Origin: Mycobacteriales bacterium
GTDB lineage: Bacteria; Actinomycetota; Actinomycetes; Mycobacteriales; SCTD01
Assembly (NCBI GenBank): GCA_046593925.1
Contig: JBKJQN010000039.1
Span: 13,763-77,762, forward strand
Direction: 5' to 3'
Length of the DNA stretch: 64,000 bases
Shown: positions 29,196-43,254 of the stretch, piece by piece
Layout of the letters: the number at the start of each line of letters is the position of its first letter
Numbering within the stretch: the first letter of the stretch is position 1
Made by a program: the position numbers and the translations under genes
The notes under the pieces: model-generated
The model's database searches: none
Told to the model about the DNA's origin: nothing
Seen by the model: the letters and a program-made list of their open reading frames with translations, nothing else

Positions 29196-29872
29196 CCCGC
29201 GTGCTGCTGGTCGAGGACGAGGAGTCGTTCTCCGACCCGCTGTCCTACCTGCTGAAGGCGGAAGGGTTCGAGGTGGCCGTCGCGTCGACCGGGCCCCAGG
29301 CGCTCGCTGAGTACGACCGCAGCGGCGCCGACATCGTGCTGCTGGACCTGATGCTGCCCGGGCTGTCCGGCACCGAGGTCTGCCGCGCGCTGCGCCAGCG
29401 CGGCTCCGTGCCGGTGATCATGCTGACGGCCCGCGACAGTGAGATCGACAAGGTGGTCGGCCTCGAGCTGGGCGCCGACGACTACGTCACCAAGCCTTAC
29501 TCCACCCGCGAGCTGCTGGCGCGGATGCGTGCGGTGCTGCGCCGCGGAGCCGAACCTGAGGAACCGGCCCCGGCGGCACTGGAGGCCGGGCCGGTGCGGA
29601 TGGACGTCGACCGGCACGTCGTCACGGTCGCCGGTGAGCATGTCCAGCTGCCGCTCAAGGAGTTCGAGCTGCTCGAGCTGCTGCTGCGCAACGCCGGTCG
29701 GGTGCTGACCCGCGGCCAGCTGATCGACCGGGTCTGGGGAGCCGACTACGTCGGTGACACCAAGACCCTCGACGTGCATGTCAAGCGGCTGCGCGCCAAG
29801 GTCGAGCCCGACCCCGGCCTGCCCCGGCACCTGGTCACGGTCAGGGGGCTGGGCTACAAGTTCGAGCCTTGA
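29192..29872 (+). CDS. regX3: Response regulator RegX3/PhoP
   Basis: MTRVLLVEDEESF, LLDLMLPG, EIDKVVGLELGADDYVTKPYS, LIDRVWGADYVGDTKTLDVHVKRLR. Confidence 0.96.
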   Translation: MTRVLLVEDEESFSDPLSYLLKAEGFEVAVASTGPQALAEYDRSGADIVLLDLMLPGLSGTEVCRALRQRGSVPVIMLTARDSEIDKVVGLELGADDYVTKPYSTRELLARMRAVLRRGAEPEEPAPAALEAGPVRMDVDRHVVTVAGEHVQLPLKEFELLELLLRNAGRVLTRGQLIDRVWGADYVGDTKTLDVHVKRLRAKVEPDPGLPRHLVTVRGLGYKFEP

Positions 29873-29893: not shown

Positions 29894-31270
29894 TCAGACG
29901 AGCCGGTCGGGCAGCGCCGTGCCGGCCAGGACCGCGGCCACGGTCACCAGTGCTGCGGCGAGCGCCAGCTCGATGCGGACGGCCGACGCGAGGTCGCCGC
30001 AGGCGGTGAGCCGGGCGCTGACCGACGCGGCACGCGAGGACATCCGCGGGACGGTCCAGACGGTGGTGAGCGCCGCGACCAGCAGCACGGTCGCCCACAG
30101 GGCCAGCTTGATCACCAGTTCGACCCCCCAGGGCGCGTGCAACTGGGCCGGCCCGTGGATGTTGCGCAGCGCCGGGTACGCGCCGGTCAGCAGCACCGTG
30201 AGCATCGCGAGCTGGGCCGTCCGGGCGAAGGCCCCGGTGAAGGCAGCGGCCGTACCGGCGGCGGCGAGCTGGTCGCGGGGCACCAGGTCGCGGGCGGTGG
30301 GCATCGCAGCGAGTGCCAGCCCGAGCAGGCCGCCGGTCCACACGCCGGCGGCGAGCAGGTGCGTCCAGTCCAAGGCCACGCCGAGCGCGGCGCCGGTGCT
30401 CGCGACGGCCGCGTGACTCGCGAGCGAGACCGTGGCCAGCAGCGCGAGTGGCAGGACCGCCAGTGCGGCGTCGGGGACCGCGCCGGCCGTCTCCCGCCGT
30501 GCGGGACGGGCGTGCAGCAGCAGGCCGGCCACCGCCAGCAGCCCCAGGAGCCGGGCGCCCAGCAGGTGGCCGGGCCGGGTTGCGGTCACCAGGTGCCACA
30601 CATCGCCGAGGTGACCGCCGACCGAGAGGGCGGCAAAGCCGCGGGACTGCGCCGCGCTGTCGAGCAGCAGCAACAGGCCGCCAAAGCCGGCCAGGCCGGT
30701 GGCGGCGAGCTGCCAGGGCCACAACCGCTGGAGCACCCGGCGGCGGGTTGCGGTGAGGTGCTCGGCCGGCAGGTGACGGGTGGCGGGGCGGATGACGAGC
30801 CATCGGAAGGCGGTCAGGCCAACGAGCGCGAGCAGGCCGATGTCTGCCAGCGCCCGGCCCGTGCCCCCGAGCAGGGAGGGGACCCCACCGCTGCTGCTGA
30901 TCTCTGCGTCGAGGGCCAGGGTCGGCGCCCCGATGGCGAAGCGCAGCGCGCCACCGACCGGGTGCCCGTCGACCGACAGGACATGGAAGCGGACCGCATA
31001 GGTCCCTGGCGCCAGCCCGGTCGGCAACCGGGCCTGCAGCGTGTGGCCATCCGATGGGCGGCCGACCACCTCGATGCCGTCGAGCCGGCGCCCGTCCGGT
31101 GCGAAGACGTCCAGCTGGCCCTGGCCGGACTCGACCAGCTCGTCGAAGCGCAGCTCGACGCGGGTGGGCGCCTGTGGCAGGACGCTGCCCGCCGCGGGGT
31201 CACTGGCGACCAGCTCGGCGTGCGCGGATGCCGGGCCCGCGCCGACCCCGACCAGCAGCAGCGCCAGCAC
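29894..31270 (-). CDS. copCD: CopC-CopD fusion copper resistance/uptake protein
   Basis: Signal then AHAELVASDPAAGSVL (N-terminal His), FHVLSVDGHP, and the multi-TM CopD part DWTHLLAAGVWTGGL. Confidence 0.9.
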   Translation of the reverse strand: MLALLLVGVGAGPASAHAELVASDPAAGSVLPQAPTRVELRFDELVESGQGQLDVFAPDGRRLDGIEVVGRPSDGHTLQARLPTGLAPGTYAVRFHVLSVDGHPVGGALRFAIGAPTLALDAEISSSGGVPSLLGGTGRALADIGLLALVGLTAFRWLVIRPATRHLPAEHLTATRRRVLQRLWPWQLAATGLAGFGGLLLLLDSAAQSRGFAALSVGGHLGDVWHLVTATRPGHLLGARLLGLLAVAGLLLHARPARRETAGAVPDAALAVLPLALLATVSLASHAAVASTGAALGVALDWTHLLAAGVWTGGLLGLALAAMPTARDLVPRDQLAAAGTAAAFTGAFARTAQLAMLTVLLTGAYPALRNIHGPAQLHAPWGVELVIKLALWATVLLVAALTTVWTVPRMSSRAASVSARLTACGDLASAVRIELALAAALVTVAAVLAGTALPDRLV

Positions 31271-31320
31271 GACGGTGGAACCTGCTCGCAGCCACTGGGC
31301 CCGGCGCCCCCGGGCCCGGG

Positions 31321-31974
31321 TCAGTGCGGGTGCCCGTCAGGTGCGGTCGCGACCTGGTCGGTCGTCCCGAGGGCGACCCGCAGGGCAGCGCTGGAGCCGG
31401 GGTCGGTGTACTCCAGCCACAGCTGCGAGCCGTCTGTCGGGGTGACCATCGTCAGGCGCGCGTCGACGGTCGAGCGTGCCGGGAGCGGACCGGCCTGCAG
31501 GGTGGTCCCGGTTACGGGCACCACCGCTGCCGGCCGGCCGGCGTGTTCGGTGGCCAGCCGGAACTGGCCCGCCTGCACGACGACGGGAGCTCGCCCGGTG
31601 TTGTTCAGCGTGACCAGGACGTTGACCTGCGCCGAGCCCTGCGCCACGAGGTCGGACACGCCGTGCGACATGCCGCCGAGGTCCTCGGCGCTCAACCCGT
31701 TGTCGAGCGTGACCTCCCGGACGGTCAGCGCGCCGAAGCTGGTGCGCACGGGATCGCCGACGGCCAGTCCGCTCGTCGAGGGATCAGCCAGCGCGCCGAG
31801 GGCGGCGTGCTCGCCGCGGGTTCTGACCAGGTCGGTGATCCGCACGGCGCCGGCCGTGGAGGCCACCGCGACCGCGAGCACTCCGGCGACAACCAGCGTC
31901 GCCAGCGCGGGGCTGCCTGGTCGTCGTGGGGCAGCGGCGAGCCGCCGGGTGGGTACGGAGCTGGTGAGCGTCAC
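31321..31974 (-). CDS. Exported/anchored beta-sandwich protein (DUF4352-like) with a GGMSHG motif
   Basis: N-terminal TM/signal; VRTSFGALTV, DLGGMSHGVSDLV, VTLNNTG, QFRL, LWLEYTDPG. Confidence 0.72.
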   Translation of the reverse strand: MTLTSSVPTRRLAAAPRRPGSPALATLVVAGVLAVAVASTAGAVRITDLVRTRGEHAALGALADPSTSGLAVGDPVRTSFGALTVREVTLDNGLSAEDLGGMSHGVSDLVAQGSAQVNVLVTLNNTGRAPVVVQAGQFRLATEHAGRPAAVVPVTGTTLQAGPLPARSTVDARLTMVTPTDGSQLWLEYTDPGSSAALRVALGTTDQVATAPDGHPH

Positions 31975-32024
31975 GGGGCGTCTCTCGGTCGACGGCGGCA
32001 GGGCTGGCAGCAGTGTGGGTCGGC

Positions 32025-32044
32025 GACCTTTGGCAAACCCTTGG
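32025..32044 (-). promoter_or_regulatory. AAGG-N8-AAGG direct repeat upstream of the 31974 gene
   Basis: Minus strand ccaagggtttgccaaaggtc; resembles the site at 37779-37797. Confidence 0.4.
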
Positions 32045-32077
32045 CCCCATTCCGAGTCACGTCCGGCGAGCTCCGGC

Positions 32078-32623
32078 TCAGGCCCCCGGCCGCCAGGCGC
32101 CGGGGATGCTGAGGGTCTGCTCGAACGTGACCTTGGTCGGGCGCAGGTCGTCCGGGGTCACGAAGGTCACCCAGCCGCGTACGCAGCCGGTGAGACCCGG
32201 CGCGTCCGGGAGCGGCGGCTGGGGGAACTGCGGCAGCAGCACCTTGGTCACCTGCGCGGTCCGCCCCTGGTCGTCGCCGAGGACCCAGGCCGGGTAGCCG
32301 AGCGCGACGGGACGGGTGCGACAGACCTGGACGTCGGCGCTGGCCCAGTGCGACGCCGACGCCGCCGGCGCCAGGGCGGGGTCCGGCGCGACCCGGTCGC
32401 GCAGGTCGAACACGCTCAGCACCGCGGGCACGTCCCCGGTTCCCGGCCCGAAGCTGCTGGCCACGAGCACCTGCTGCCCGGTCCCCAGCCTCACCGCCGC
32501 CGCCCGCGGAGCCGGTGGTGCGGTGGGGCTGGGCTCCCCACCGCCCACCGTGGTGCCGCTGCGGCATCCGCCGAGCAGCACCGTCGCCAGGACGAGTGCG
32601 GCCAGGGGCGGCCGAGCTGTCAA
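32078..32623 (-). CDS. Lipoprotein (DUF4352-like fold)
   Basis: Lipobox LLGGC; VQVCR...GCVRGWVTFVTP; TTG start 4 nt after the oxidase stop. Confidence 0.78.
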   Translation of the reverse strand: MTARPPLAALVLATVLLGGCRSGTTVGGGEPSPTAPPAPRAAAVRLGTGQQVLVASSFGPGTGDVPAVLSVFDLRDRVAPDPALAPAASASHWASADVQVCRTRPVALGYPAWVLGDDQGRTAQVTKVLLPQFPQPPLPDAPGLTGCVRGWVTFVTPDDLRPTKVTFEQTLSIPGAWRPGA

Positions 32624-32627
32624 CCTG

Positions 32628-35600
32628 TCAGCCGCCCGTCAGGCAGCTGGGTTCGCCGGCCGGCAGGCCGGCGCAGCTGACCGGTCGGGGGGCCACCCGG
32701 ATCAGCCCCCAGGCGCCGACCTGGGTGAACGGGCGCCGCAGGTCGCCGTAGAAGTAGTCGCCGGTCTGCTGCGCGAAACCGCCGGCGCCCCCCTCGACCC
32801 AGGCGTCGAACGACTCACCGGGCCCCAGCGCCTGGTTGGCGTCGTACTCGCTGCCGGGGATGAGCATGTCGCGCGGAGCCTCCAGGCCGCCCAGGGTGAA
32901 CACGTGCCCCTGCTCGCTGCCCGGGGTCACGCTTTCGTGGACCAGCAGGCCGTCACCGGCATAGGTCTTCACCACGGGTGTCGCCGGGTCTACGGTGCCG
33001 CCCGGGTCGGCGTAGGTCGCCGAGGTGTCCCCGGCGGGCGCCCGCTGGTAGTTGATCACCGTCGCACCCTGCTCCGCGTTCGTGGGGTAGGGCATGAAGT
33101 CCTGGGACATCCGCGGGTCGTTGTCGGCCAGCAGCAGCGACACGTCCCGGTAGTCCTGCCGGTTGGGCCCGGCGATCGGGGCGGGCAGGTGCACGTCGAC
33201 CTGCGCACCGACCGCGGTCGGGGTGTGGCCCGGCCCGAACGTCGCCCCCTGCGGCGAGACCACGACGGCTCCGTACAGCCCCAGCTTCTGACTGTCATGG
33301 CTGTCGTCGCCGGCCAGGTCGGCGACCGTGGCGCTGCCGAGGAAGGCGCTGTCGGCGTAGGAGGTGTACGCGCGGCTGGTGCCTGGGGCCGTCGTGGCCG
33401 CCGGGCTGTAGCCGACGGCGACCCCGGACGAGCCGGCGCTGCGGTCGAGCTTGCCCACGGCGAAGGTGGCCGGCGCCGAGCGGTTGTTGGTGAGGGTGAC
33501 GACGAGGCAGTCGCCGGCCGCGACGTGCAGCACCAGGGGCTCGGGCTTGACGGTGCCGGCCAGCAGCCCGGCCACGGCCGAGGAGGCGGCGAACACCGCC
33601 TGGTTGCTGCCGAGATCCAGGGCGGTCACGTCGTAGGACTTCACCGGCGCCCCGGTCGGGCACGGGCTGGCGTTGTCGACGGCGTTCGGTGCCGGCGGGC
33701 TGGAGCTGGCGGCGGGCCGGACCCAGGTGCCGCCGGGAGCCGGATTGTCCGGCAGGGGCAGCAGGTCGCCGGCATTGGCCGGCAGGACCCGCACGATGCC
33801 CCAGGCGCCCTGGGCGGTGCGGCGAGCGATACCGTTGGAGTAGAGGTAGTCGCCGGGCCGGCTCCTGCCCTTCGGTCCGTTGCCCTCCAGGGCGAGCGTG
33901 TACTTCTCGCTCATCCCGTAGTGGATCGTGTCCGCCGGGCTCCCGACGGTCACGGGCGTCCCCCCGCCCGGGTCACCCTGCACGATCCCATTGACGCCCA
34001 GGGTCATCCTGGCCTCGATGTCGAAGCGCTGGCCCTGGAAGCGAAGTGTGTCCAGTGTCGGGCTGACGTTGATGGTCCGCACGACCAGCGGGTCGCCCGG
34101 GTAGCCGCGCAGCAGCGGGGTCTTGGGGTCGCCGTACGTATAGGAGGAGTAGCGGTTCGCTGCGCTCGGACGCTCGGTGAACGGAGCGGCCTTCAAGTTG
34201 ATCGTGGAGTAATCGCCGTTGTCGTTGTCGTTGATCGTCCACAGTGCCAGCTCGCGGAAGCTGCCGTTGACGTGCCCGGGAAGCAGGTCCTGGTAGCCCG
34301 GCGCGGACCTGTTGGCGACGATGTCCGCGATCGTGCCCGACTTGATCTCGGCGCTGTGGTTACCGGGGGCGTAGAACTTCGACCCGGCCGGCTCGACGAT
34401 CAGCTGCCCGACCAGGCCGTGGCCCCAGCCGTGGATGCCGTCGACGTGGTCGTGCCAGAAGATGTTGTCGAGCTGCGTGTCGGCGTACCACTCGTACTGG
34501 ATGAACTCGAAGCCGGCGCGGTCGGTGACCGGGTGGGCGTTCCTGAGCGGTGCGTCCAGGGTGACGGTGTTGGCTGTCGGGTTGACGGCGAGGACCTGCC
34601 GGACCTCGATCCCCTCGCTGCCCATACCGACCCCGATGAACGGGTGGGAAGGGGCGCCGGTCGCCGTGCGGTCCTGGAACTTGGCCACGCTGGTGAGCTG
34701 CAGACTTGTCGCGCCGCCGCTGCTTGCCGTGCGCAGCGTCGGGTCCTCGACCTGGTACGGCCGGACGGAGTGCTCGTACGCGAAGCCGGTCGAGACGCCG
34801 TCGGAGCCCTGCACGTCGAACTGCACGTGGTGGATGTGCATCGTGGTCTTGGACCAGCCGTCGAAGGTGGTCGCGTCGGGGATCTCGTTGGTCAGCGTCA
34901 CTTTCGCGCAGTCACCCACATTCACGCGCAGGGCCAGCGGCTGGGACGTCGGGTCGCTGTAGACCTTGCGCTTGTCCTGGGCGAGCGTGAACAGCTTGCC
35001 CTCCCGGTCGGTGATCGTGGCGCTGCGCTGCACCGGGGTGGCGATGGCGACGACGTTGAAGTGCCGGGTCGGGGTCGGCCCGCCGGTCGAGGTCCGCGCC
35101 GGGCACAGCCCATCAGGCCGATAGGCGTACGGGTCCACGGTCGGCTGGACGGTCACTGCCGGGTCGGGGTCGGCGCGGAAGCTCGAGTCGATCGGACCTG
35201 GTGAGTCGGCGCTCTGCGGGTCGGTGGTCTTGGAGTGCTGTGCTCCCGGCGCGGCGTCACCGTGCTCGCCGAGCAGCGGTGAGCCGGAGTGGCCCTGCGG
35301 GCTGAACGGTGGTCGGCTGCCCAGGTGGGTGCGCAGGACCGGGAAGGCCGGCCGGCCGTCGACGGGGTTGAACAGCTGGGCGGGCCGTCCCCGGCCGGTG
35401 GCGTCGGTCTCGTAGAACAGCGGCTGCGCCGTGGACAGGTCGAACTGCGGGTGCTGCGCGCTCCCCTGCCGCTTGAGGTCGGTGGTCTGCAGGCCGGGGT
35501 GCTGGGGGATGTCGGACTGGTTGGGCCAGGCGCCGGCCCCGGTGCCGGTGGGGGTGATGTCCTCGGGCTCGGCGAGTGCGATCGCGGGGTTGGCTTTCGA

Positions 35601-37721
35601 CCAGGTCCAGTTGTAGACGGAGGGGTCCTGCGCGGACGCCCGCACGCCCTGCGGCGGCAGCTGCTGGCGTACCAGCGCAGCGAGGTCCGTGGGGTTCTTG
35701 ATGGTCTGGCTGGGGTCGGTCGGGTTGCCGCCGCTGTCCTTCGGGCCGAAGTTCTTGCCGACAAGCTGGTCGGACGTGACGGCTTCGGGCGCGGCGACCC
35801 GGTCGCTCAGCGCGGCGAAGTTGGGCTGCAGGGTGTTGTAGACCCGCCAGAAGCTCCACATGCCCGACACGTAGTGCTTGGCGATGTGGCAGTGGAACAG
35901 CAGGTCGCCGACCGTGTGCTGGACGCCGCCGGCGCCACCTTCGAGCTCGAGGTTGTAGGACTCGCCCGGCCCGATCGACTGGGCATCGAGCCGGTTGGAA
36001 GCCACCTCGTTCTGGGGGTGCTTGTTCAGCCGGGTGTCGGCGTAGTTCCACGACGGGTCGGCGACCGGGTTCATCCGCCAGCGGTCGCCACCACCGTGCA
36101 GGTGATAGACGTGGAACTTCTCGCCGCTGGCATGGCTGATCCGGAACTTCGTGGGGTCGCCGACGTACCCGCGGGGCATCGGGGTCGACGGATCGCCGAA
36201 GGTGTACGAGGAGTACGAATGGGACTTCTCCTTACCGAAGGCGAGCAGCCGGTTGCGGAACGGCTCTGAGCGGTAGTTGAGCGCGAACTGCCCTGGGCGG
36301 TAGCTGCCGGTCGTGGAGTCCACCTGCGGCAGCTCCGCGCCGTTGCGGTCGTAGATGACCTCGTTGTCGTTGCCGACCTCGTGGTGCTGGAAGATCGCCT
36401 CGCGGAACGACGCCCCGCCAGCGGGCGCCACGACGCCCTCCCAGCCCGACAGCAGCGGGGAGCCGGTGCTGGCGCCGGCGTACACAGACCCCTTCGGCTC
36501 CACGTTCAGCATGCCGAACAGCCCGTGGTCCACTGCGGCGCGAAAGCCGGGCCCGGGGTGTACGTAGTGCGACCCCTCCAAGTTCTTGTTGTCTGGGACG
36601 TAGTAGCGGAATGTCGTCGTCTCGCCCAGTGCGACCGCGGAGTCGGCGTTCTTGCCGATCGCGTCTCCGGACGAGGCCGCGGCAAAGGCCAGCCCGTCGA
36701 TGTGCAGCCCGTACCTGCCGCCGGAGGCAAGGTTGGTGAAGGTGACGGTGACGCAGTCGCCCTCGTTCACCCGGACCGACAGGGGCTGGATCGGGTCGTC
36801 CCGCAGGCCGACCGAGACCTTCTGGCTGGCCTCCTCGTGCCGGACTGCCTGCAGCGCCGACAGCGGGCCTTGCGGGTCCGGCACGGGTATCCCGCTCGCG
36901 ACGTCGACCCGGTAGGTGTTGGCCTGCCCGTCCACGCTGTTGACGACGAGCATCTTCCCGGACCGGTCGTTGTCGCCCGACCTGTTGAGGGGAGTCTTCA
37001 GGTCGATCGCCGTGACGTCGAAGGCGCGCTGCGGCGCCCCGGGCAGGCAGGGCTGGCCCGGGTCGCTGCCGGACGCGGACGCCGGCGCTGCGGGCAGCAG
37101 CCCGAGCCCGGCGGCGGCCATCGCGCAGATCGTGAGCCTGGCGACGTACCGGCACAGCCGTCCCCGGCTGGGACCGGCGGTGGTCTGCGCGAGTGGGCCC
37201 GCGCCGACCTCGGGCGACGCGGTGAGCCTGGGCAGCGCGATCGCCGCAAGCGCGGTGAGAACGGTGACCGGGAGCAGCAACACGACGTCGCCAGCGAGGT
37301 GGGAGAGCGGCGCCCCGCCGCCCGCACCGGCGGTGCCGAGCACCGCGTCGCGCAATGGCGTGGCGGCGGCGAGGGCGAGGGCGGTCCCGGCGCCGGTGAG
37401 GACCGCCCGGAGCACCCTGGTCGCCCCTGCGCCGAGCTCGAGCCGTCGGCCGGCCTGCCAGGTGACCAGCGCCGCCAGCACGACGCAGACCAGCACGAGG
37501 GGGAGCGCGAGGCTCGCGTCGCGGAGCGCGGCCGCGGCCAGGCCCGACGGGACCGGCCGGCCTGAAGCGAGGGCGTGGAACTCGGCAGACCAGGCGGCGC
37601 CGACGGCGGCCAGGCACACCGCGACGCCGAACAGCGCCCCGGCGCGGGGACGGGCACCGGCGCGCCCTGCCCTTTCGCCGGCACCCCAGGACACCTGGGT
37701 CGTCAGTGTGGTCGAGTCCAT
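32628..37721 (-). CDS. Giant (~1697 aa) membrane-anchored multicopper oxidase, MnxG-type motif order
   Basis: ATG 37721 with RBS GGGGAGAAG. Copper motifs: HVYHLHG, FHCHIAKHYVSGM, MHIHH, FWHDH. N-terminal multi-TM domain and several cupredoxin-like repeats (PLSVRVNEGDC, PLALRVNVGDC, PLVLHVAAGDC). Confidence 0.9.
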   Translation of the reverse strand: MDSTTLTTQVSWGAGERAGRAGARPRAGALFGVAVCLAAVGAAWSAEFHALASGRPVPSGLAAAALRDASLALPLVLVCVVLAALVTWQAGRRLELGAGATRVLRAVLTGAGTALALAAATPLRDAVLGTAGAGGGAPLSHLAGDVVLLLPVTVLTALAAIALPRLTASPEVGAGPLAQTTAGPSRGRLCRYVARLTICAMAAAGLGLLPAAPASASGSDPGQPCLPGAPQRAFDVTAIDLKTPLNRSGDNDRSGKMLVVNSVDGQANTYRVDVASGIPVPDPQGPLSALQAVRHEEASQKVSVGLRDDPIQPLSVRVNEGDCVTVTFTNLASGGRYGLHIDGLAFAAASSGDAIGKNADSAVALGETTTFRYYVPDNKNLEGSHYVHPGPGFRAAVDHGLFGMLNVEPKGSVYAGASTGSPLLSGWEGVVAPAGGASFREAIFQHHEVGNDNEVIYDRNGAELPQVDSTTGSYRPGQFALNYRSEPFRNRLLAFGKEKSHSYSSYTFGDPSTPMPRGYVGDPTKFRISHASGEKFHVYHLHGGGDRWRMNPVADPSWNYADTRLNKHPQNEVASNRLDAQSIGPGESYNLELEGGAGGVQHTVGDLLFHCHIAKHYVSGMWSFWRVYNTLQPNFAALSDRVAAPEAVTSDQLVGKNFGPKDSGGNPTDPSQTIKNPTDLAALVRQQLPPQGVRASAQDPSVYNWTWSKANPAIALAEPEDITPTGTGAGAWPNQSDIPQHPGLQTTDLKRQGSAQHPQFDLSTAQPLFYETDATGRGRPAQLFNPVDGRPAFPVLRTHLGSRPPFSPQGHSGSPLLGEHGDAAPGAQHSKTTDPQSADSPGPIDSSFRADPDPAVTVQPTVDPYAYRPDGLCPARTSTGGPTPTRHFNVVAIATPVQRSATITDREGKLFTLAQDKRKVYSDPTSQPLALRVNVGDCAKVTLTNEIPDATTFDGWSKTTMHIHHVQFDVQGSDGVSTGFAYEHSVRPYQVEDPTLRTASSGGATSLQLTSVAKFQDRTATGAPSHPFIGVGMGSEGIEVRQVLAVNPTANTVTLDAPLRNAHPVTDRAGFEFIQYEWYADTQLDNIFWHDHVDGIHGWGHGLVGQLIVEPAGSKFYAPGNHSAEIKSGTIADIVANRSAPGYQDLLPGHVNGSFRELALWTINDNDNGDYSTINLKAAPFTERPSAANRYSSYTYGDPKTPLLRGYPGDPLVVRTINVSPTLDTLRFQGQRFDIEARMTLGVNGIVQGDPGGGTPVTVGSPADTIHYGMSEKYTLALEGNGPKGRSRPGDYLYSNGIARRTAQGAWGIVRVLPANAGDLLPLPDNPAPGGTWVRPAASSSPPAPNAVDNASPCPTGAPVKSYDVTALDLGSNQAVFAASSAVAGLLAGTVKPEPLVLHVAAGDCLVVTLTNNRSAPATFAVGKLDRSAGSSGVAVGYSPAATTAPGTSRAYTSYADSAFLGSATVADLAGDDSHDSQKLGLYGAVVVSPQGATFGPGHTPTAVGAQVDVHLPAPIAGPNRQDYRDVSLLLADNDPRMSQDFMPYPTNAEQGATVINYQRAPAGDTSATYADPGGTVDPATPVVKTYAGDGLLVHESVTPGSEQGHVFTLGGLEAPRDMLIPGSEYDANQALGPGESFDAWVEGGAGGFAQQTGDYFYGDLRRPFTQVGAWGLIRVAPRPVSCAGLPAGEPSCLTGG

Positions 37722-37764
37722 GGCTTCTCCCCTGGCAGTGCCGACCTGTTGGTCGTCTGGGCGA

Positions 37765-37797
37765 GACCTTCGACCTACGACCTTCGGACACCCTTGG
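37765..37797 (-). promoter_or_regulatory. Oxidase promoter repeats: gacctWc x3 and AAGG-N7-AAGG
   Basis: gaccttc-gacctac-gaccttc (37765-37785); minus strand ccaagggtgtccgaaggtc (37797-37779). Confidence 0.45.
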
Positions 37798-37881
37798 GGA
37801 ACTGCGGTCCGCCGAGTCGGGCCGGCCCGGTTGCGGTTCGATCCGGCGGCGCTTGTGCCGGACGCCTGCGGCAGCTGGCAA

Positions 37882-37896
37882 AAGGTGTTAGCAAGG
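37882..37896 (+). promoter_or_regulatory. AAGG-N7-AAGG direct repeat upstream of the SpoIIE gene
   Basis: aaggtgttagcaagg, 11-nt period. Confidence 0.4.
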
Positions 37897-37995
37897 TGCC
37901 GAGGGCACGCTCGGGCTCCGGCAGCGAGCCTGGCAGGAGGTCTTGGCGTGCGGATCTTTTCGCGCTCACGCGCGACGGGCACCGAGTCGGTCGCG

Positions 37996-39786
37996 GTGCG
38001 TACGCGGCGTCAGATCCTCCTGATCGGCTTGGGCGGTGTCCTGCTGGAGACGGTCATCGCGCACACCGCCCTGGTCGGGCTGGCGCGCGTCGACGCAGCG
38101 TACGAGAGCGTCGGACGGCTGGGCCTGGCCCAGCGCTACGTCCAGGACGCCGACCAGCTCCACGACGCCCTGCACGCCGACGTCCTGCAGGCCGTCGTGC
38201 TCAGCGACAGCCGTCTGGTGCTGCCCGGGGACGCGACGCAGAGCCTGCGGGCGCACGCGGCCGCTTTCCGGGAGAACCTGAGCCAGGCCCGGGACGTCGC
38301 GCTGCCCACCGACCTGTCTGCTGCCGTGTGGAGCATCCGCGACGTACAGGAACGCTATGTGACCACCGCCGAGCAACTCACGTCGCTGGCGGGACGTGAC
38401 CCGGCTGCGGCCCGCTCCGGGCTGGTGGCCTTCACGGCCACCTTCGTCGAGCTGGAGCGCGCCCAGGCGGACCTGGCGACCCGGCTCGAGTCCGCGGCAA
38501 GCCTGCTCGAGACGCGGGCCGGCGGGGAGGAGCGCGCGGTGCGGCTGCGGATCGGCGAGGCCTCGCTGGCGGCGGTGCTCGGCCTGCTCGGGCTGACCTG
38601 GAGCCTGCTCCGGCTGGGCCGGGCGCTCGCGGCGCTCGCGGCACGGGAGCGCGGGGTCGCCGAGACGCTGCAGCACAGCCTGCTGCCCGACGAGCTGCCT
38701 GAGCTGCCCGGGGTGGAGCTTGCGGCGCGCTACGTCCCAGGGGGCACGGGCACCGAGGTCGGAGGCGACTGGTACGACGTGATCCCGTTGCGTACGGGAG
38801 CGGTCGGGCTGGTGATGGGCGACGTCGCGGGGCACGACCTCCGTGCGGCTGCGGTGATGGGGCAGCTCCGGCACGCCCTGCGGGCGTACGTTGCCGAGGA
38901 CCTGTCGCCCGGCCAGGTGCTCGACCGGCTCAACCGGCTGACCCTGGCCCAGTCGCCCGACGAGATGGTGACGTGCGTCTACGCCGTCCTTGACCCGGTG
39001 GCCCGCACCCTGGTCGTCGCCAACGCCGGCCACTACGCGCCCCTGCTCGTGTCCCCCGACGGCACGGTTACCGCGGTCGAGCAGCCGGCCTGCCCGCCGA
39101 TCGGGGCGGTGCGCGGCACCTCTTACCCGGACGTGCGGCACGAGCTGGAGCCCGGCAGCACGCTGCTGCTGTTCACCGACGGCCTGGTGGAGCGGCGCGG
39201 CGTGCCGGTCTGCGTCGGCATCGAGGAGCTGACCGCCCTGCTCGCGGCGCATGCCCGCGACCTGGACACCCTGTGCGACGGGCTGATCACCGGGATGCTG
39301 GGCGAGCGCCCGCCCACCGACGACGTCGCTCTCCTGGTCGTGCGGGCGGCCCCGCGACTCGGCCACCACCTCGCCCTGGAGTGGCCCGCGGAGCCCGCCC
39401 GGCTGGTCGACCTGCGCCGCACCCTGGAGCGCTGGCTGGTCGAGGCCGGGGCCGACGAGGCTGAGGTGTACGAGGTCGTCGTGGCCTGCTCGGAGGCGGC
39501 GACCAACGCGATCGAGCACGCCTACGGTCCGGGGGAAGCCTCGTTCGAGGTAACCTGCGACGTCGACCCGCATGACCGTACGGCGACCATCGTGGTCCGC
39601 GACCACGGCCACTGGCGCAGCGCCCGCGGCCGCGACCGGGGACGCGGCCTGCAGCTCGTGGAGGGGCTGATGGACGAGGTGCGCGTGCTTACCAGCGAGG
39701 CCGGCACCGAGGTGCACATGCGCCGCCGGCTCGGCGGGCAGCCCGGCCGGATCCCCCGCCAGGCACGCGAGCAGGTGTCGGCATGA
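37996..39786 (+). CDS. Membrane SpoIIE/PP2C phosphatase with four-helix sensor and C-terminal HATPase (RsbU-RsbW fusion)
   Basis: 2 TMs flanking a helical domain; LQHSLLP, VGGDWYDV, GDVAGHD, NAGHYAP, LLFTDGLVE, DDVALL; SEAATNAIEHAY, VRDHGHW, GRGLQLV. Confidence 0.92.
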   Translation: MRTRRQILLIGLGGVLLETVIAHTALVGLARVDAAYESVGRLGLAQRYVQDADQLHDALHADVLQAVVLSDSRLVLPGDATQSLRAHAAAFRENLSQARDVALPTDLSAAVWSIRDVQERYVTTAEQLTSLAGRDPAAARSGLVAFTATFVELERAQADLATRLESAASLLETRAGGEERAVRLRIGEASLAAVLGLLGLTWSLLRLGRALAALAARERGVAETLQHSLLPDELPELPGVELAARYVPGGTGTEVGGDWYDVIPLRTGAVGLVMGDVAGHDLRAAAVMGQLRHALRAYVAEDLSPGQVLDRLNRLTLAQSPDEMVTCVYAVLDPVARTLVVANAGHYAPLLVSPDGTVTAVEQPACPPIGAVRGTSYPDVRHELEPGSTLLLFTDGLVERRGVPVCVGIEELTALLAAHARDLDTLCDGLITGMLGERPPTDDVALLVVRAAPRLGHHLALEWPAEPARLVDLRRTLERWLVEAGADEAEVYEVVVACSEAATNAIEHAYGPGEASFEVTCDVDPHDRTATIVVRDHGHWRSARGRDRGRGLQLVEGLMDEVRVLTSEAGTEVHMRRRLGGQPGRIPRQAREQVSA

Positions 39787-40151
39787 CCGTCGCCCATGTC
39801 CAGGTGCAGATCGAGGGCGGCCCGATGTGGCCGGTCGCCCTAGTCGGCGGCGAGGTCGACCTGTCCAACGTCGACGGCGTAGCCAGCACCCTGGAGGGCG
39901 CGGTGAGCAACGCGGCCCTCGGTCTGGTGCTCGACCTGTCCGGCGTGACCTACCTCGACAGCACCGGGCTGCGGCTGCTCTTCCGGCTGGCCCGCGAGCT
40001 GCGCGACCGGCAGCAGGCGCTGCGCATCGTCGTCCCCCCGGAGGCCCTGATCTGGCGGGTACTCCGGCTCAGCGGTGTGCCGGACGTCGTCCCGGTGTCA
40101 CGGTCCCTCCCCGAGGCGCTGCTGGCCACGTCAACCGCGTCCGCCGGGTGA
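39783..40151 (+). CDS. STAS domain anti-sigma factor antagonist
   Basis: GEVDLSN, VLDLSGVTYLDSTGLRLL; ATGA overlap. Confidence 0.92.
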   Translation: MTVAHVQVQIEGGPMWPVALVGGEVDLSNVDGVASTLEGAVSNAALGLVLDLSGVTYLDSTGLRLLFRLARELRDRQQALRIVVPPEALIWRVLRLSGVPDVVPVSRSLPEALLATSTASAG

Positions 40152-40516
40152 CCGACGTGGGCAGCCCGCTGCCAGCACCCATGACGGGGTTCGTGCAGGT
40201 GTGCATGACCGGTGACCTGGACGCGGAGGCGGCGCCCGCGTTCCGTCGCCGTCTCGAGGCGGCGGTCGGCGCAGGCGCGGCGCTGATCCTGATCGACATG
40301 CGCGACGTCGTCTTCCTCGACTCGGCCGCGCTGGCCGTCATCGTCGGGGTGAACCGTCAGCTGCCGGTAGGACAGCGCCTCGCGCTGACCCAGGTCCCCC
40401 TGCGGATGCAGCGGGTGCTCCGGGTGGCCGCGATCGCGAGCCTGCTCCCGGTGCACGAGCAGGGGCAGCCGTGGCCGTGGGGCGATGTCGTCGCCGAACC
40501 GGGCCCCCTGGACTGA
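40148..40516 (+). CDS. Second STAS domain anti-sigma factor antagonist
   Basis: GDLDAEAAP, LIDMRDVVFLDSAALAVI; GTGA overlap. Confidence 0.88.
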   Translation: MTDVGSPLPAPMTGFVQVCMTGDLDAEAAPAFRRRLEAAVGAGAALILIDMRDVVFLDSAALAVIVGVNRQLPVGQRLALTQVPLRMQRVLRVAAIASLLPVHEQGQPWPWGDVVAEPGPLD

Positions 40517-40534: not shown

Positions 40535-41371
40535 TCAGCCGGTCAGGGGTTCAACGACCGGTGCGGAACGGGGGCGGACCGATGGCAGGCCGAGGCTGCG
40601 GGCGGCGGCTGTGGCGGGGTGCGGCGGCAGGCCGGGGCGGTCGCGGCACAGTCCGGCGAGCACGGCGTAGGCGTCGGCCCCCAGCAGGGCGGTCAGCTCC
40701 GCGGCGTACGACACCCACAGCGGCTCGGCGCCGACGTGCGCCTCCGGCGCGCCGGTGCACCACCAGTGCAGGTCGGCGCCGCCCGGACCCCAGCCGCGCC
40801 GGTCGAACTCCCCGACGGAGCTGACGAGGACCTCGACGTCGTCCGGCCGGGTGACGCGCTCCTGCGAGCGGCGGACCGGGAGCTGCCAGCAGACGTCGGG
40901 CTTGGTCTGCAGGGGGTGCCGGCCGCTGCGCAGCGCGAGGGCGTGCAGCGCGCAGCCCTCGCCGCCGGCGAAGCCCGGCCGGTTGAGGAACACGCACGCG
41001 CCGTCGACGGTGCGGGTACGCCGGACCGTCTCGCCCTCGAGCTCGTCGAGCTCGCCGATGCCGAGCGCCCGGCCGGTGTCCGCATGCTGCCAGTCGCGCT
41101 TGCGCAGCTGGCTGGCGGCGCGGGTGACCCGCTGCTCGTCGTCGTCGTCGGACCAGAACGCGCCGTGCGTACAGCAGCCGTCGTCGGCCCGGCCCGGGGC
41201 GATGCCGAGGCACCCCGAGCCGTAGACGCAGGTCCAGGACGACAGCAGCCAGGTGAGGTCGGCGCGCACGACGTGCCCGTCGTCGGCGGGGTCGGGGAAC
41301 TCCACCCAGTCGCGCGGGTGGTCCGGGTCGACCTCGCGACGCCGCGGGAGGCCCAGGTCTGTGCTCGTCAC
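40535..41371 (-). CDS. Conserved Cys-rich protein (Rv0495c/DUF3109-like)
   Basis: [49 protein letters not shown]; lies just upstream of and divergent from ppx, apart from the relic. Confidence 0.85.
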
Positions 41372-42211
41372 AGGACGCGGACGACCGGTAGTGCCACGTC
41401 GTCGCGGCCGGTGGCGTCCGGTGCCGCGAGCAGCTCGTCGCACACCGTCTCGGCGTCGGCGTCGGCAGCGGTCGAGCTGGGCGGACAGCTGTCCGCGCAC
41501 CCGAGCCCCGGCACCTGTGGCAGCCGACGCAGCAGGCTGCGCTGCAACGCCTCCGCGACGTCGTGCTCGCGCTCGTAGAGCCGGGCGCTGTCGACGGTGA
41601 GCGCCGCCCGGCGGCCAAGGTCGGCAGCCAGCGACAGGTCGTCCTCGTCGTACTTCCGGTCGGCTGCAGGCCCCTGGGCCCGCTTGCGCAGGCCGGCCCT
41701 GGCGGGGTCGACATGGCCGCCGCTGTCGTCGACGAGCTCGGCGGCGGACCGGGCGCTGCGCTCGGCCTCGAGCGCGCGGCCGCGCTCCTGCTCGGCAACC
41801 ACCCGGGCGGTGACGTCGGCCCGGATGCCGACAACGTCGGTGCGTATGCCCTCGCTGTCGCGGACCGGTGAGAGCGACAGCTCGTCCCAGAAGGGGGTGC
41901 CGTCCTTGCGCTGGTTGAGCAGGGTGACGACCAGGTGCCGCCGGCGCTCCCCGGATCCGCCGGACGGCCGCCCGGTCGGTGTCGCGGCCCTGCAGCAGCC
42001 GGCAGTTGCGCCCGACCACCTCGGTGGAGGACCAGCCCGTTGTGCGTGCGAAGGCCGGGTTGACATGCACCAGCGGGTCGTCATCGGCACGCGCCTCGCT
42101 GACGGTGAGCGACCGGCCTGCCGGGGCCACCGCCCGCTCGCGCAGGCCCGACGGGGCCGGCAGGTCGCTGAGGACCTGCAGGGATGTGTCCGCCGCACCG
42201 GGAGCGACCAC
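41368..42211 (-). pseudogene. Decayed LOV(PAS)-GAF-SpoIIE signalling gene
   Basis: [26 protein letters not shown], frameshift near 41950, then [25 protein letters not shown] end ([16 protein letters not shown]), SpoIIE start (ALQRSLL) and end (DDVAL) with large deletions. Confidence 0.82.
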
Positions 42212-42318
42212 GCGGACGGTCGCGCGGTCGGCGTCGACGGCCTCTCCCGCGGGGTCACAAAGGTGAATCTACCGGGGCGGCGCGCCCCGCGGGTAGTCAC
42301 CTGGGTAGCGTCCGGCGC

Positions 42319-43254
42319 ATGCGGCTCGGCGTGCTCGACGTGGGGTCCAACACCGTTCACCTGCTGGTCGTGGATGCGCACCGGGGCGGCCACCCGGATC
42401 CGGTGCGGTCGCACAAGACCGAGCTGCACCTCGCCGAGTTGCTGCACCCCGACGGCTCGCTCGGCGCGGACGGCGCCGCCGCGCTGTGCGACGCGGTTGC
42501 TGCGGCCCGGGCTGCCGCCGACGCCGACGGCGCCGAGGACCTGGTCGCGTTCGCCACCTCGGCGGTGCGCGACGCCACCGACAGCGCCGCGGTGCTGGCG
42601 GCCGTCCTGGAGCGCACCGGCGTGGAGCTGCAGGTGCTGCCGGGCGCCGACGAGGCGCGGCTGACGTTCCTGGCTGTCCGGCGCTGGTTCGGCTGGAGCT
42701 CCGGTCGCCTGCTGTGCCTGGACATCGGAGGTGGTTCGCTCGAGCTGGCCACCGGGATCGATGAGGACCCCGACGCGGCCCTGTCGGTGCCGCTCGGCGC
42801 CGGCCGGCTGACCCGCGAGGTCTTGACGAGGGACGACCCGCCGAAAAAGCGTGACGTTGCTGCCCTGCGCGAGCACGTACGCGCAGTGCTCGCGGGTGCT
42901 GTCCCGGCGCTGCTCGACGCCGGCCATGCCGACCGGAGCGTCGCCACCAGCAAGACGTTCCGCTCGCTCGCCCGGCTGGACGGCGCGGCGCCCTACAGCG
43001 AGGGGCCGCGGGTGCCGCGGGTGCTCAGCCTGGCCGGCCTGGACCGGACGGTGGAGCTGCTGTCGGGGATGCGGGTCGTCGACCGGGCCCGGCTGCCCGG
43101 CGTCTCGCCCAGCCGGGCCGGGCAGCTGCTGGCCGGCGCTGTCGTCGCGCAGGAGTCGCTGCGCTCGTTCGGGCTCACATCGGTCGAGGTCTGCCCGTGG
43201 GCGCTGCGGGAGGGCATGATCCTGCGGCGGCTGGACTGGCTGGCGGGGGCCTGA
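42319..43254 (+). CDS. ppx: Ppx/GppA exopolyphosphatase
   Basis: [54 protein letters not shown]. Confidence 0.95.

Follow-up and report, generated by a model that had tools for sequence, protein, structure and literature searches.

In soil, manganese oxides rank with the strongest of natural oxidants and sorbents, and Mn(III) drives the breakdown of litter and lignin. Bacillus spores and a few proteobacteria are, to our knowledge, the only settings in which the enzymatic oxidation of manganese is understood. In Bacillus sp. PL-12 the oxidase MnxG is complexed with an MnxE3F3 ring (PDB entry 9bxa) and the assembly resides in the exosporium, while Pseudomonas putida GB-1 relies on MnxG, McoA and MopA, the last of which represents the other known class of bacterial Mn oxidase and combines An_peroxidase with RTX repeats (PMC13689576). 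Here we analyze a 64,000-nucleotide stretch of a Mycobacteriales genome (GenBank assembly GCA_046593925.1, contig JBKJQN010000039.1, positions 13,763 to 77,762), hereafter called the window, from a high-GC (about 73%) actinobacterium whose nearest public relatives are Frankiales metagenome-assembled genomes from glacier and soil samples. Four co-oriented minus-strand open reading frames (ORFs) at 29894-37721 encode a giant MnxG-type multicopper oxidase, a lipoprotein, a DUF4352-like protein (termed the partner below) and a CopC-CopD fusion. We examine how this locus compares with the described systems and tentatively propose that it specifies a membrane-anchored machine for Mn(II) oxidation, in which the oxidase and its partner form the conserved core.

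The oxidase matches the Pfam families Cu-oxidase_3 and Cu-oxidase_2, and the sole PDB entry retrieved with the single protein sequence is Bacillus MnxG in 9bxa (phmmer, E 2.4e-81), through six collinear or paralogous stretches that cover MnxG residues 51-1215 and all six of its domains. When a family profile built from 15 members was run against all PDB chains, MnxG scored 456.5 bits, the highest score for a two-domain laccase was 38.6, with ceruloplasmin at 22.9 and Fet3 at 12.3 (E 0.19), and no CueO/CopA-type or other three-domain oxidase chain exceeded about 20 bits; a separate tree was computed within the oxidase family. With MnxG at 456 bits and laccases at no more than 38, grouping with ordinary laccases or CueO, which the initial annotation of this DNA had set beforehand as the refuting outcome, is therefore not seen in the profile comparison with the PDB, and the MnxG-type assignment made in the same annotation is upheld by that distance to the next-best class. 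These comparisons place the oxidase in the MnxG type rather than in the CueO, CotA or laccase types.

The six cupredoxin domains make up three consecutive two-domain repeats (residue ranges 225-635, 870-1315 and 1350-1680; E values of 1e-8 to 1e-14 between pairs), and copper ligands are kept at a single inter-unit interface, that between domains 2 and 3. In the 15-sequence family alignment (A1) the His/Cys/His/Met set of the type 1 (T1) site and all eight trinuclear histidines are invariant, the named invariant residues being H537, H540, H542, H610, C611, H612, H616, M621, H962, H964, H1090 and H1092. The corresponding motifs, including HxxHxH and HCH, align to those of MnxG, and their order is permuted relative to ordinary three-domain multicopper oxidases, as in the Bacillus enzyme. 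Where domains 2 and 3 meet, the oxidase has one complete T1 site together with a single trinuclear cluster, again as in Bacillus MnxG.

The likeness to the Bacillus complex thus comprises the same six collinear cupredoxin domains, the same permuted copper motifs and the presence, in both, of small accessory proteins encoded adjoining the oxidase, and MnxG is the only close relative with a solved structure. The differences are equally defined. The oxidase of the window carries about 470 extra residues, accounted for by a 214-residue N-terminal membrane domain, a 235-residue linker that follows domain 2 and an insertion within domain 3; four invariant cysteine pairs (C225/C323, C873/C938, C1354/C1405 and C1683/C1693) are a further feature; its predicted location is the cell membrane rather than an exosporium; and a transmembrane-anchored DUF4352-like protein, joined in the clade of the window by the lipoprotein, stands in place of MnxE and MnxF.

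To see which neighbors accompany the oxidase, relatives were sought in one genome per GTDB species, which yielded at least 413 stretches, and the best 80 loci (numbered with the prefix L) were analyzed. The 413 stretches belong mostly to Actinomycetota (Frankiales, Intrasporangiaceae, Nocardioidaceae, Pseudonocardiales, Ilumatobacteraceae, Solirubrobacterales, Gaiellales and Rubrobacteraceae), with some Chloroflexota, and the carriers are soil, sediment and glacier actinobacteria. An iterated profile detects the partner in 69 of these loci, 10 of the 11 misses being without upstream DNA, and wherever an upstream flank is available the partner gene lies beside the oxidase in all but one case (67 of 68), usually as its immediate upstream neighbor in the same orientation, a median of 16 nt away, with gaps of 4-18 nt in annotated genomes. 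Unbiased clustering of all flanking ORFs likewise returned the partner as by far the most conserved neighbor. The conserved core therefore consists of two genes, those for the DUF4352-like partner and the oxidase, in place of the four-gene unit put forward initially: the expected synteny holds for the partner, while the lipoprotein is limited to one clade, and in 16-22 of the 80 loci (about 20-27%) CopC/CopD is encoded, at varying positions, no more than 10 kb away from the oxidase. Among 41 relatives of the window genome the oxidase is patchy, occurring in 3-4 of them; the genome of the window itself (G000) and two others (G023 and G027) carry both core genes, a further one (G001) has the oxidase on a contig devoid of flanks, and in another (G014) the partner is found on a 3.6-kb contig. 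Tandem or multiple partner-oxidase modules also occur, as two loci each feature two oxidases in a row (L030 10001-20714 and L031 1771-9598), the latter with two partner matches, and G027 holds three oxidase paralogues on separate contigs (C167, C83 and C540).

The partner matches PF11611 (DUF4352) at E 1.6e-3 and 19.2 bits, below the gathering score of 25.9, and 23 of 46 members of its family match the same entry at E <= 0.01, the best at 1.8e-7. Its AlphaFold2 (AF2) model (mean predicted local distance difference test score, pLDDT, 88.6) features an N-terminal transmembrane helix followed by a beta-sandwich, and Foldseek comparisons (YcdA 4r4g, E 1.1e-4; YjhA 3cfu, E 3.5e-4) indicate a modeled fold like that of the solved DUF4352 proteins. 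Across the family, G93, G101 and H104 are invariant within a GGMxHG loop, and the C terminus ends in H215-x-H217, an HxH tail present in 84-90% of members; together, loop and tail are plausible copper ligands. Fold searches with the models of both accessory proteins, partner and lipoprotein, returned MPT63/YcdA/YjhA-type sandwiches and no chain of 9bxa among the top 50, and these results, together with a search of the PDB with the partner profile, rule out the accessory proteins as MnxE/F homologues. The suggestion of two non-homologous accessory subunits thus stands insofar as neither is a homologue of MnxE or MnxF and no sequence homology is detectable between the two, and falls short in that both belong to one beta-sandwich fold class.

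Residues 1-214 of the oxidase comprise four hydrophobic helices and a fifth, weakly hydrophobic, Ala/Gly-rich and signal-like segment that ends in ASA. This membrane domain has no counterpart in Bacillus MnxG, in which residue 3 of the 9bxa chain aligns to profile position 210, and it is poorly conserved apart from a few residues, among which Asp145 is near-invariant. Five hydrophobic segments are found in 34 of 51 homologues, with the same build in Nocardioides, Intrasporangium and many metagenome-assembled genomes, and 34 of 51 homologues, including one 93% identical to the oxidase of the window, carry an RR pair ahead of the last segment. Judged by the positive-inside rule, an extracytoplasmic and membrane-tethered position is very likely for the catalytic body, and the four invariant cysteine pairs fit such an oxidizing location; the surface-tethered placement proposed at the outset is thereby supported.

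The arrangement resembles that of the polytopic actinobacterial metalloproteins inserted by the dual Sec and twin-arginine translocation (Tat) route, such as Rieske QcrA and Sco3746, with which it shares an even number of helices, a weakly hydrophobic last helix and a large cofactor domain outside the cell. The families described for this route exclude multicopper oxidases (eLife 2017, PMC5449189). Unlike those proteins, the oxidase of the window has SRGRL in place of RR, so that Sec/Tat insertion stays a possibility only, and its last segment terminates in AxA, so that the fifth segment may be cleaved. A signal peptidase I gene is found upstream of the partner-oxidase pair in 8 of the 80 loci (for example L080 4556-5269), a recurrence that could relate to the AxA site.

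Further indications of function come from a second giant gene. In Nocardioides aromaticivorans and Intrasporangium flavum a gene of about 1800 codons precedes the partner-oxidase pair and encodes An_peroxidase, RTX calcium-binding repeats and fn3/Big_5 domains, which is the architecture described above for MopA. Such a giant An_peroxidase/RTX/fn3 gene lies at most 10 kb from the oxidase in 20 of the 80 loci, all of them among the 41 that are fully flanked, with at least 8 kb on both sides of the oxidase. The linked loci, which include those of cultured Nocardioides, Intrasporangium, Terrabacter and Pedococcus, are concentrated in the Intrasporangiaceae/Nocardioidaceae branch and also occur in the clade of the window (L002) and on three distant branches (L046, L055 and L079). 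The peroxidase family has no match in 14 control genomes, so chance proximity is unlikely. P. putida GB-1 likewise pairs an MnxG-type oxidase with an animal-haem-peroxidase/RTX protein of MopA architecture; no adjacency of its three oxidase genes is described, in contrast to the close linkage in 20 of the 41 fully flanked actinobacterial loci, and the copper-handling gene of the oxidase operon is SCO1/SenC rather than CopCD (review PMC13689576). The peroxidase linkage is the best indirect argument for manganese as the substrate, although it argues by association. On other contigs of the window's own genome (C75, C14 and C24; L090-L096) two giant An_peroxidase frames of 1778 and 1733 codons and one shorter frame are present.

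These observations are consistent with a cell-surface metal-oxidizing system built on a membrane-anchored six-domain MnxG-type oxidase, for which we favor Mn(II) oxidation as the leading predicted function, at somewhat less than even confidence. In the proposed mechanism, the four N-terminal helices would anchor the oxidase and the fifth, signal-like segment would take the catalytic body outside, with the Tat route possibly serving export in many relatives. The partner would fill the role of the Bacillus MnxE3F3 ring as an obligatory subunit or copper-inserting chaperone, the lipoprotein would be a clade-specific third component, the YcnJ-like CopC-CopD would secure copper for the oxidase, and a SpoIIE/STAS partner-switch module encoded next to the cluster may regulate the block. 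On the surface of the cell, Mn(II) would then be converted to Mn(III/IV) and its electrons passed to O2, and in many relatives a MopA-like haem peroxidase would act in parallel. A wider proposal, more doubtful than the functional assignment itself, is that soil Actinomycetota and some Chloroflexota share an undescribed surface Mn-oxidizing machine in which a polytopic-anchored MnxG-type oxidase is joined by a DUF4352-like protein with the His motif, serving as obligatory subunit or metallochaperone in place of MnxE3F3, and in many lineages by a MopA-like peroxidase; the oxidase may then represent a new Sec- and Tat-inserted family.

Actinobacterial MnxG-like genes have already appeared in surveys, and pipelines label them 'MnxG' or 'manganese oxidase' (bioRxiv 10.1101/2022.11.10.515945; PMC13439051). 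In the literature we searched, no experimental study of the actinobacterial oxidase family was found, the partner, the membrane anchor and the peroxidase linkage are nowhere described, and no characterized system shares the composition seen in the window, in agreement with the initial annotation. The system is widespread among soil bacteria and may bear on manganese cycling. Were manganese its substrate, a very large assemblage of bacteria from soil and rock varnish could be assigned a mechanism, and a second, differently assembled example of an Mnx machine would be at hand; were it not, metagenomic counts of 'Mn oxidase' in Actinomycetota would be misleading. Cultured carriers exist in Nocardioides, Terrabacter, Intrasporangium and Pedococcus, among them N. 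aromaticivorans, N. pocheonensis, Terrabacter sp. Root85, I. flavum and Pedococcus sp. KACC 23699, so the question is directly testable.

Several points weigh against Mn(II) oxidation by such a machine. The oxidase reaches only 119.5 bits with the NCBIfam MnxG equivalog model NF041487, whose cut-off is 3100, and is thus best described as a distant MnxG relative and not an equivalog; the oxidase comparison, moreover, was limited to PDB chains, a set outside which MofA, McoA and Pseudomonas MnxG fall. No MnxE/F homologues were found at the locus, the partner profile retrieving only YcdA and YjhA from the PDB and no 9bxa chain, and the window holds neither a MopA-like peroxidase gene nor, at the RR position of its oxidase, a twin-arginine motif. 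The peroxidase linkage also fits oxidative chemistry other than that of manganese, the literature searched contains no activity data for any member of the oxidase family, and the substrate range of a multicopper oxidase cannot be read from its sequence. On the supporting side, the oxidase, lipoprotein and partner genes all have counterparts of 91-93% identity among the contigs of an ice metatranscriptome, and one contig of 999 nt joins the partner and lipoprotein genes, which lends weak support to transcription of the cluster as an operon; these contigs come from a related strain, and contigs from RNA libraries can contain DNA.

The breadth of multicopper oxidase chemistry invites other readings, among which the use of organic or polymeric substrates is unlikely but deserves serious consideration. 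Here the oxidase would be a laccase-like enzyme of the cell surface that teams up with secreted haem peroxidases and acts on phenolics, humic matter or lignin, in pigment formation or in envelope cross-linking. Multicopper oxidases are often promiscuous, the soil, sediment and glacier habitats of the carriers suit such substrates, genes for SARP/BTAD and LuxR-type regulators recur near the oxidase, and the adhesion-like fn3/Big_5 domains of the linked giant peroxidase fit oxidative polymer chemistry. Against this, a dedicated Mn oxidase is the nearest relative in structure and shares both the six-domain build and the placement of the copper sites, and the An_peroxidase and RTX architecture of that same peroxidase is the one that defines MopA, itself a Mn oxidase class (PMC13689576).

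Two further readings turn on the other metals that such enzymes handle. Copper homeostasis, in which an extracytoplasmic cuprous oxidase and CopC-CopD would form a Gram-positive analogue of the Pseudomonas copABCD resistance operon, appears improbable. The P. syringae operon likewise encodes a multicopper oxidase with CopC and CopD, CopC-CopD shares an operon with the oxidase in the window and occurs near the 16-22 oxidases counted above, a YcnI-like DUF1775 gene follows CopCD in L082, and the Met/His motifs of the partner are typical of copper ligands. The oxidase itself, however, is a six-domain MnxG-type enzyme far from the CueO/CopA type (456 bits for MnxG, about 20 at most for three-domain oxidases), CopB is missing from the window, most related loci are without CopC/CopD, and no P-type ATPase, CsoR/RicR or CopZ is found among the recurring neighbors; in addition, CopCD/YcnJ-type proteins are tied to copper uptake and not export, as established for B. 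subtilis YcnJ. Least of all do we expect a ferroxidase that would oxidize Fe(II) at the membrane in the manner of Fet3 or ceruloplasmin, with the N-terminal membrane domain or CopD as the coupled metal permease. Six-domain multicopper oxidases do include ceruloplasmin-type ferroxidases, to which the family profile matches weakly (23 bits), and here the oxidase has, in the same chain, a conserved membrane domain of several passes that includes the near-invariant Asp145; the similarity to ceruloplasmin and Fet3 is nevertheless marginal, the membrane domain is otherwise poorly conserved, and no iron-uptake or iron-regulated genes recur nearby.

The two remaining genes of the cluster are more restricted in distribution than the core. 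The lipobox Cys20 of the lipoprotein is invariant in 39 homologues, and Cys101 and Cys147 are conserved; among 5.8 billion proteins its family accounts for only 65 clusters, all devoid of Pfam domains, and the protein itself gives no PF11611 match. The gene adjoins the oxidase in L002-L005 and L082-L085 with the order oxidase, lipoprotein, partner preserved, and neither the lipoprotein nor this order occurs outside a single clade, which spans nine rows of the oxidase tree and has 100% support. An iterated profile detected the lipoprotein in only 4 of the 80 loci, and its occurrence beyond the clade is rejected. In the AF2 model (pLDDT 84.6) the best fold match is MPT63 (1lmi, E 5.5e-4), followed by YxkC, YcdA and YjhA. 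Sequence homology between lipoprotein and partner was likewise rejected, as hhalign gave a probability of 20% and aligned the transmembrane parts only, the shared fold class notwithstanding. The public gene call for the lipoprotein in the record of the window itself (P0126) is 138 residues long and uses a downstream start, whereas homologues back the 181-residue version that begins at TTG and includes the lipobox.

The CopC-CopD fusion scores 83 bits with PF04234 (cut-off 23.3) and 39 bits with PF05425 (cut-off 32.1), and lies below the NCBIfam equivalog cut-offs (72.8 versus 195 and 70 versus 95 bits). The mature CopC moiety would begin with His after ASA, and a DGH motif is present. B. subtilis YcnJ shows the same CopC-CopD fusion, N-terminal His and DGH copper site, and its companion YcnI corresponds to the DUF1775 protein encoded next in sister loci such as L082, where it directly follows CopCD; in contrast to YcnJ/YcnI, the fusion of the window sits in an oxidase operon, and the window contains neither a DUF1775 gene nor a YcnK-like regulator. 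The GTG start of CopCD at 31270 yields a signal peptide without a charged n-region, and the in-frame codons upstream of it read TRARGRRAQWLRAGSTV, a good n-region with RR (31268-31339). The only possible upstream start is a CTG at 31324-31322 that overlaps the partner stop codon (CTGA), and the true CopCD start may thus be a non-canonical CTG translationally coupled to the partner.

The cluster lies within a larger insertion. A plus-strand senX3/regX3-like pair ends at 29872, convergent with the cluster, and ppx is found at 42172-43254 on its other side. In three genomes of the same family that lack the oxidase (L102-L104), regX3 abuts a homologue of ORF 40535-42211, followed by ppx, and the segment 29894-40516 is therefore a single 10.6-kb indel. 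Insertion between regX3 and the ppx region had been noted from the window itself, and the three relatives confirm it with a block larger than first delimited, as it comprises the four oxidase-cluster genes, a SpoIIE-HATPase_c_2 gene and two STAS genes. No integrase and no flanking repeats were seen for the block, and its junctions are only about 20 nt wide. The minus-strand ORF 40535-42211 matches only the ends of a longer gene in G012 (L103 9599-12057), the middle of which is SpoIIE-like, which suggests that the ORF of the window is truncated or rearranged.

The SpoIIE-HATPase_c_2 gene is divergent from the oxidase, and the same partner-switch module is found beside the oxidase cluster in L082 and L083 (66% identity) and in L003 (47%); we regard it as the likeliest regulator in the clade of the window. 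The senX3/regX3 pair is an unlikely regulator of the cluster, being convergent with it and retained in relatives that lack it. SARP/BTAD and LuxR-type two-component genes recur near the oxidase in other loci. Regulation thus appears to differ from that in Pseudomonas, where sigma-54 and MnxS1S2R are in charge, as the actinobacterial loci carry the partner-switch module or SARP/LuxR regulators instead. A perfect direct repeat, GAAGGTC-N7-GAAGGTC, lies at 37765-37785, at a distance of 44-64 nt ahead of the oxidase ATG; nowhere else in the window does the pattern match without a mismatch, and matches with up to three mismatches are not enriched (10 found versus 5 expected). No sigma-70-like site was found in the oxidase/SpoIIE intergenic region, and a promoter and terminator scan gave nothing useful.

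The features of the locus are collected in Table 1. Coordinates and strand of the four minus-strand genes, as first annotated, agree with the ORFs and their translations.

Table 1. Features of the oxidase locus and the adjoining partner-switch genes, in window coordinates.
Feature	Coordinates	Strand	Basis
Giant MnxG-type multicopper oxidase, 1697 aa	32628-37721	-	ORF, ribosome-binding site, Pfam, PDB match to 9bxa, internal repeats
Oxidase N-terminal membrane domain, residues 1-214 (predicted)	37080-37721	-	Translation, coding-frame profile
Domain-2 copper motifs H537-x-x-H540-x-H542 and H610-C611-H612-x3-H616-x4-M621	35859-36113	-	T1 ligands and first half of the trinuclear set
Domain-3 copper motifs H962-x-H964 and W-H1090-D-H1092, then H1097, H1101	34419-34838	-	Second half of the trinuclear set
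Clade-specific lipoprotein, 181 aa, lipobox LLGGC	32078-32623	-	TTG start, homologues, AF2 model
DUF4352-like partner, 217 aa	31321-31974	-	Weak PF11611 match, AF2 model, Foldseek, locus conservation
CopC-CopD fusion, YcnJ-like	29894-31270	-	Pfam PF04234 and PF05425
Divergent intergenic region between oxidase and SpoIIE gene, 226 bp	37722-37947	.	Sequence, third-position GC content
SpoIIE(PP2C)-HATPase_c_2 gene	37948-39786	+	Pfam; part of inserted block 29894-40516
STAS gene 1	39783-40151	+	Pfam; partner-switch module
STAS gene 2	40148-40516	+	Pfam; partner-switch module

The oxidase start is an ATG at 37721 with GGGGAG ahead of it. Position-specific GC profiles over the three codon positions (GC1/GC2/GC3) display minus-strand coding up to about 37650 and an intergenic pattern from there to about 37950, with GC3 falling to 0.66-0.68 across the divergent intergenic region; a longer, 1784-residue version of the ORF that reaches 37982 is therefore not the gene, as the ribosome-binding site at 37721 also indicates. 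On the opposite strand, the candidate GTG start of the SpoIIE gene at 37948 is preceded by GGAGG. At the junction between oxidase and lipoprotein, the TGA stop (32628-32630) is followed by 'cagg' and the TTG start at 32623, which reproduces exactly the 4-nt gap previously reported, and a minus-strand ORF at 31971-32567 was dismissed as spurious, as it overlaps the lipoprotein gene in the wrong frame and has an Arg/Pro/Gly-rich translation. The bridging metatranscriptome contig (run X12) has 299 unrelated letters in place of the 302 nt at 31768-32069 between the partner and lipoprotein genes; the intergenic region differs between close strains.

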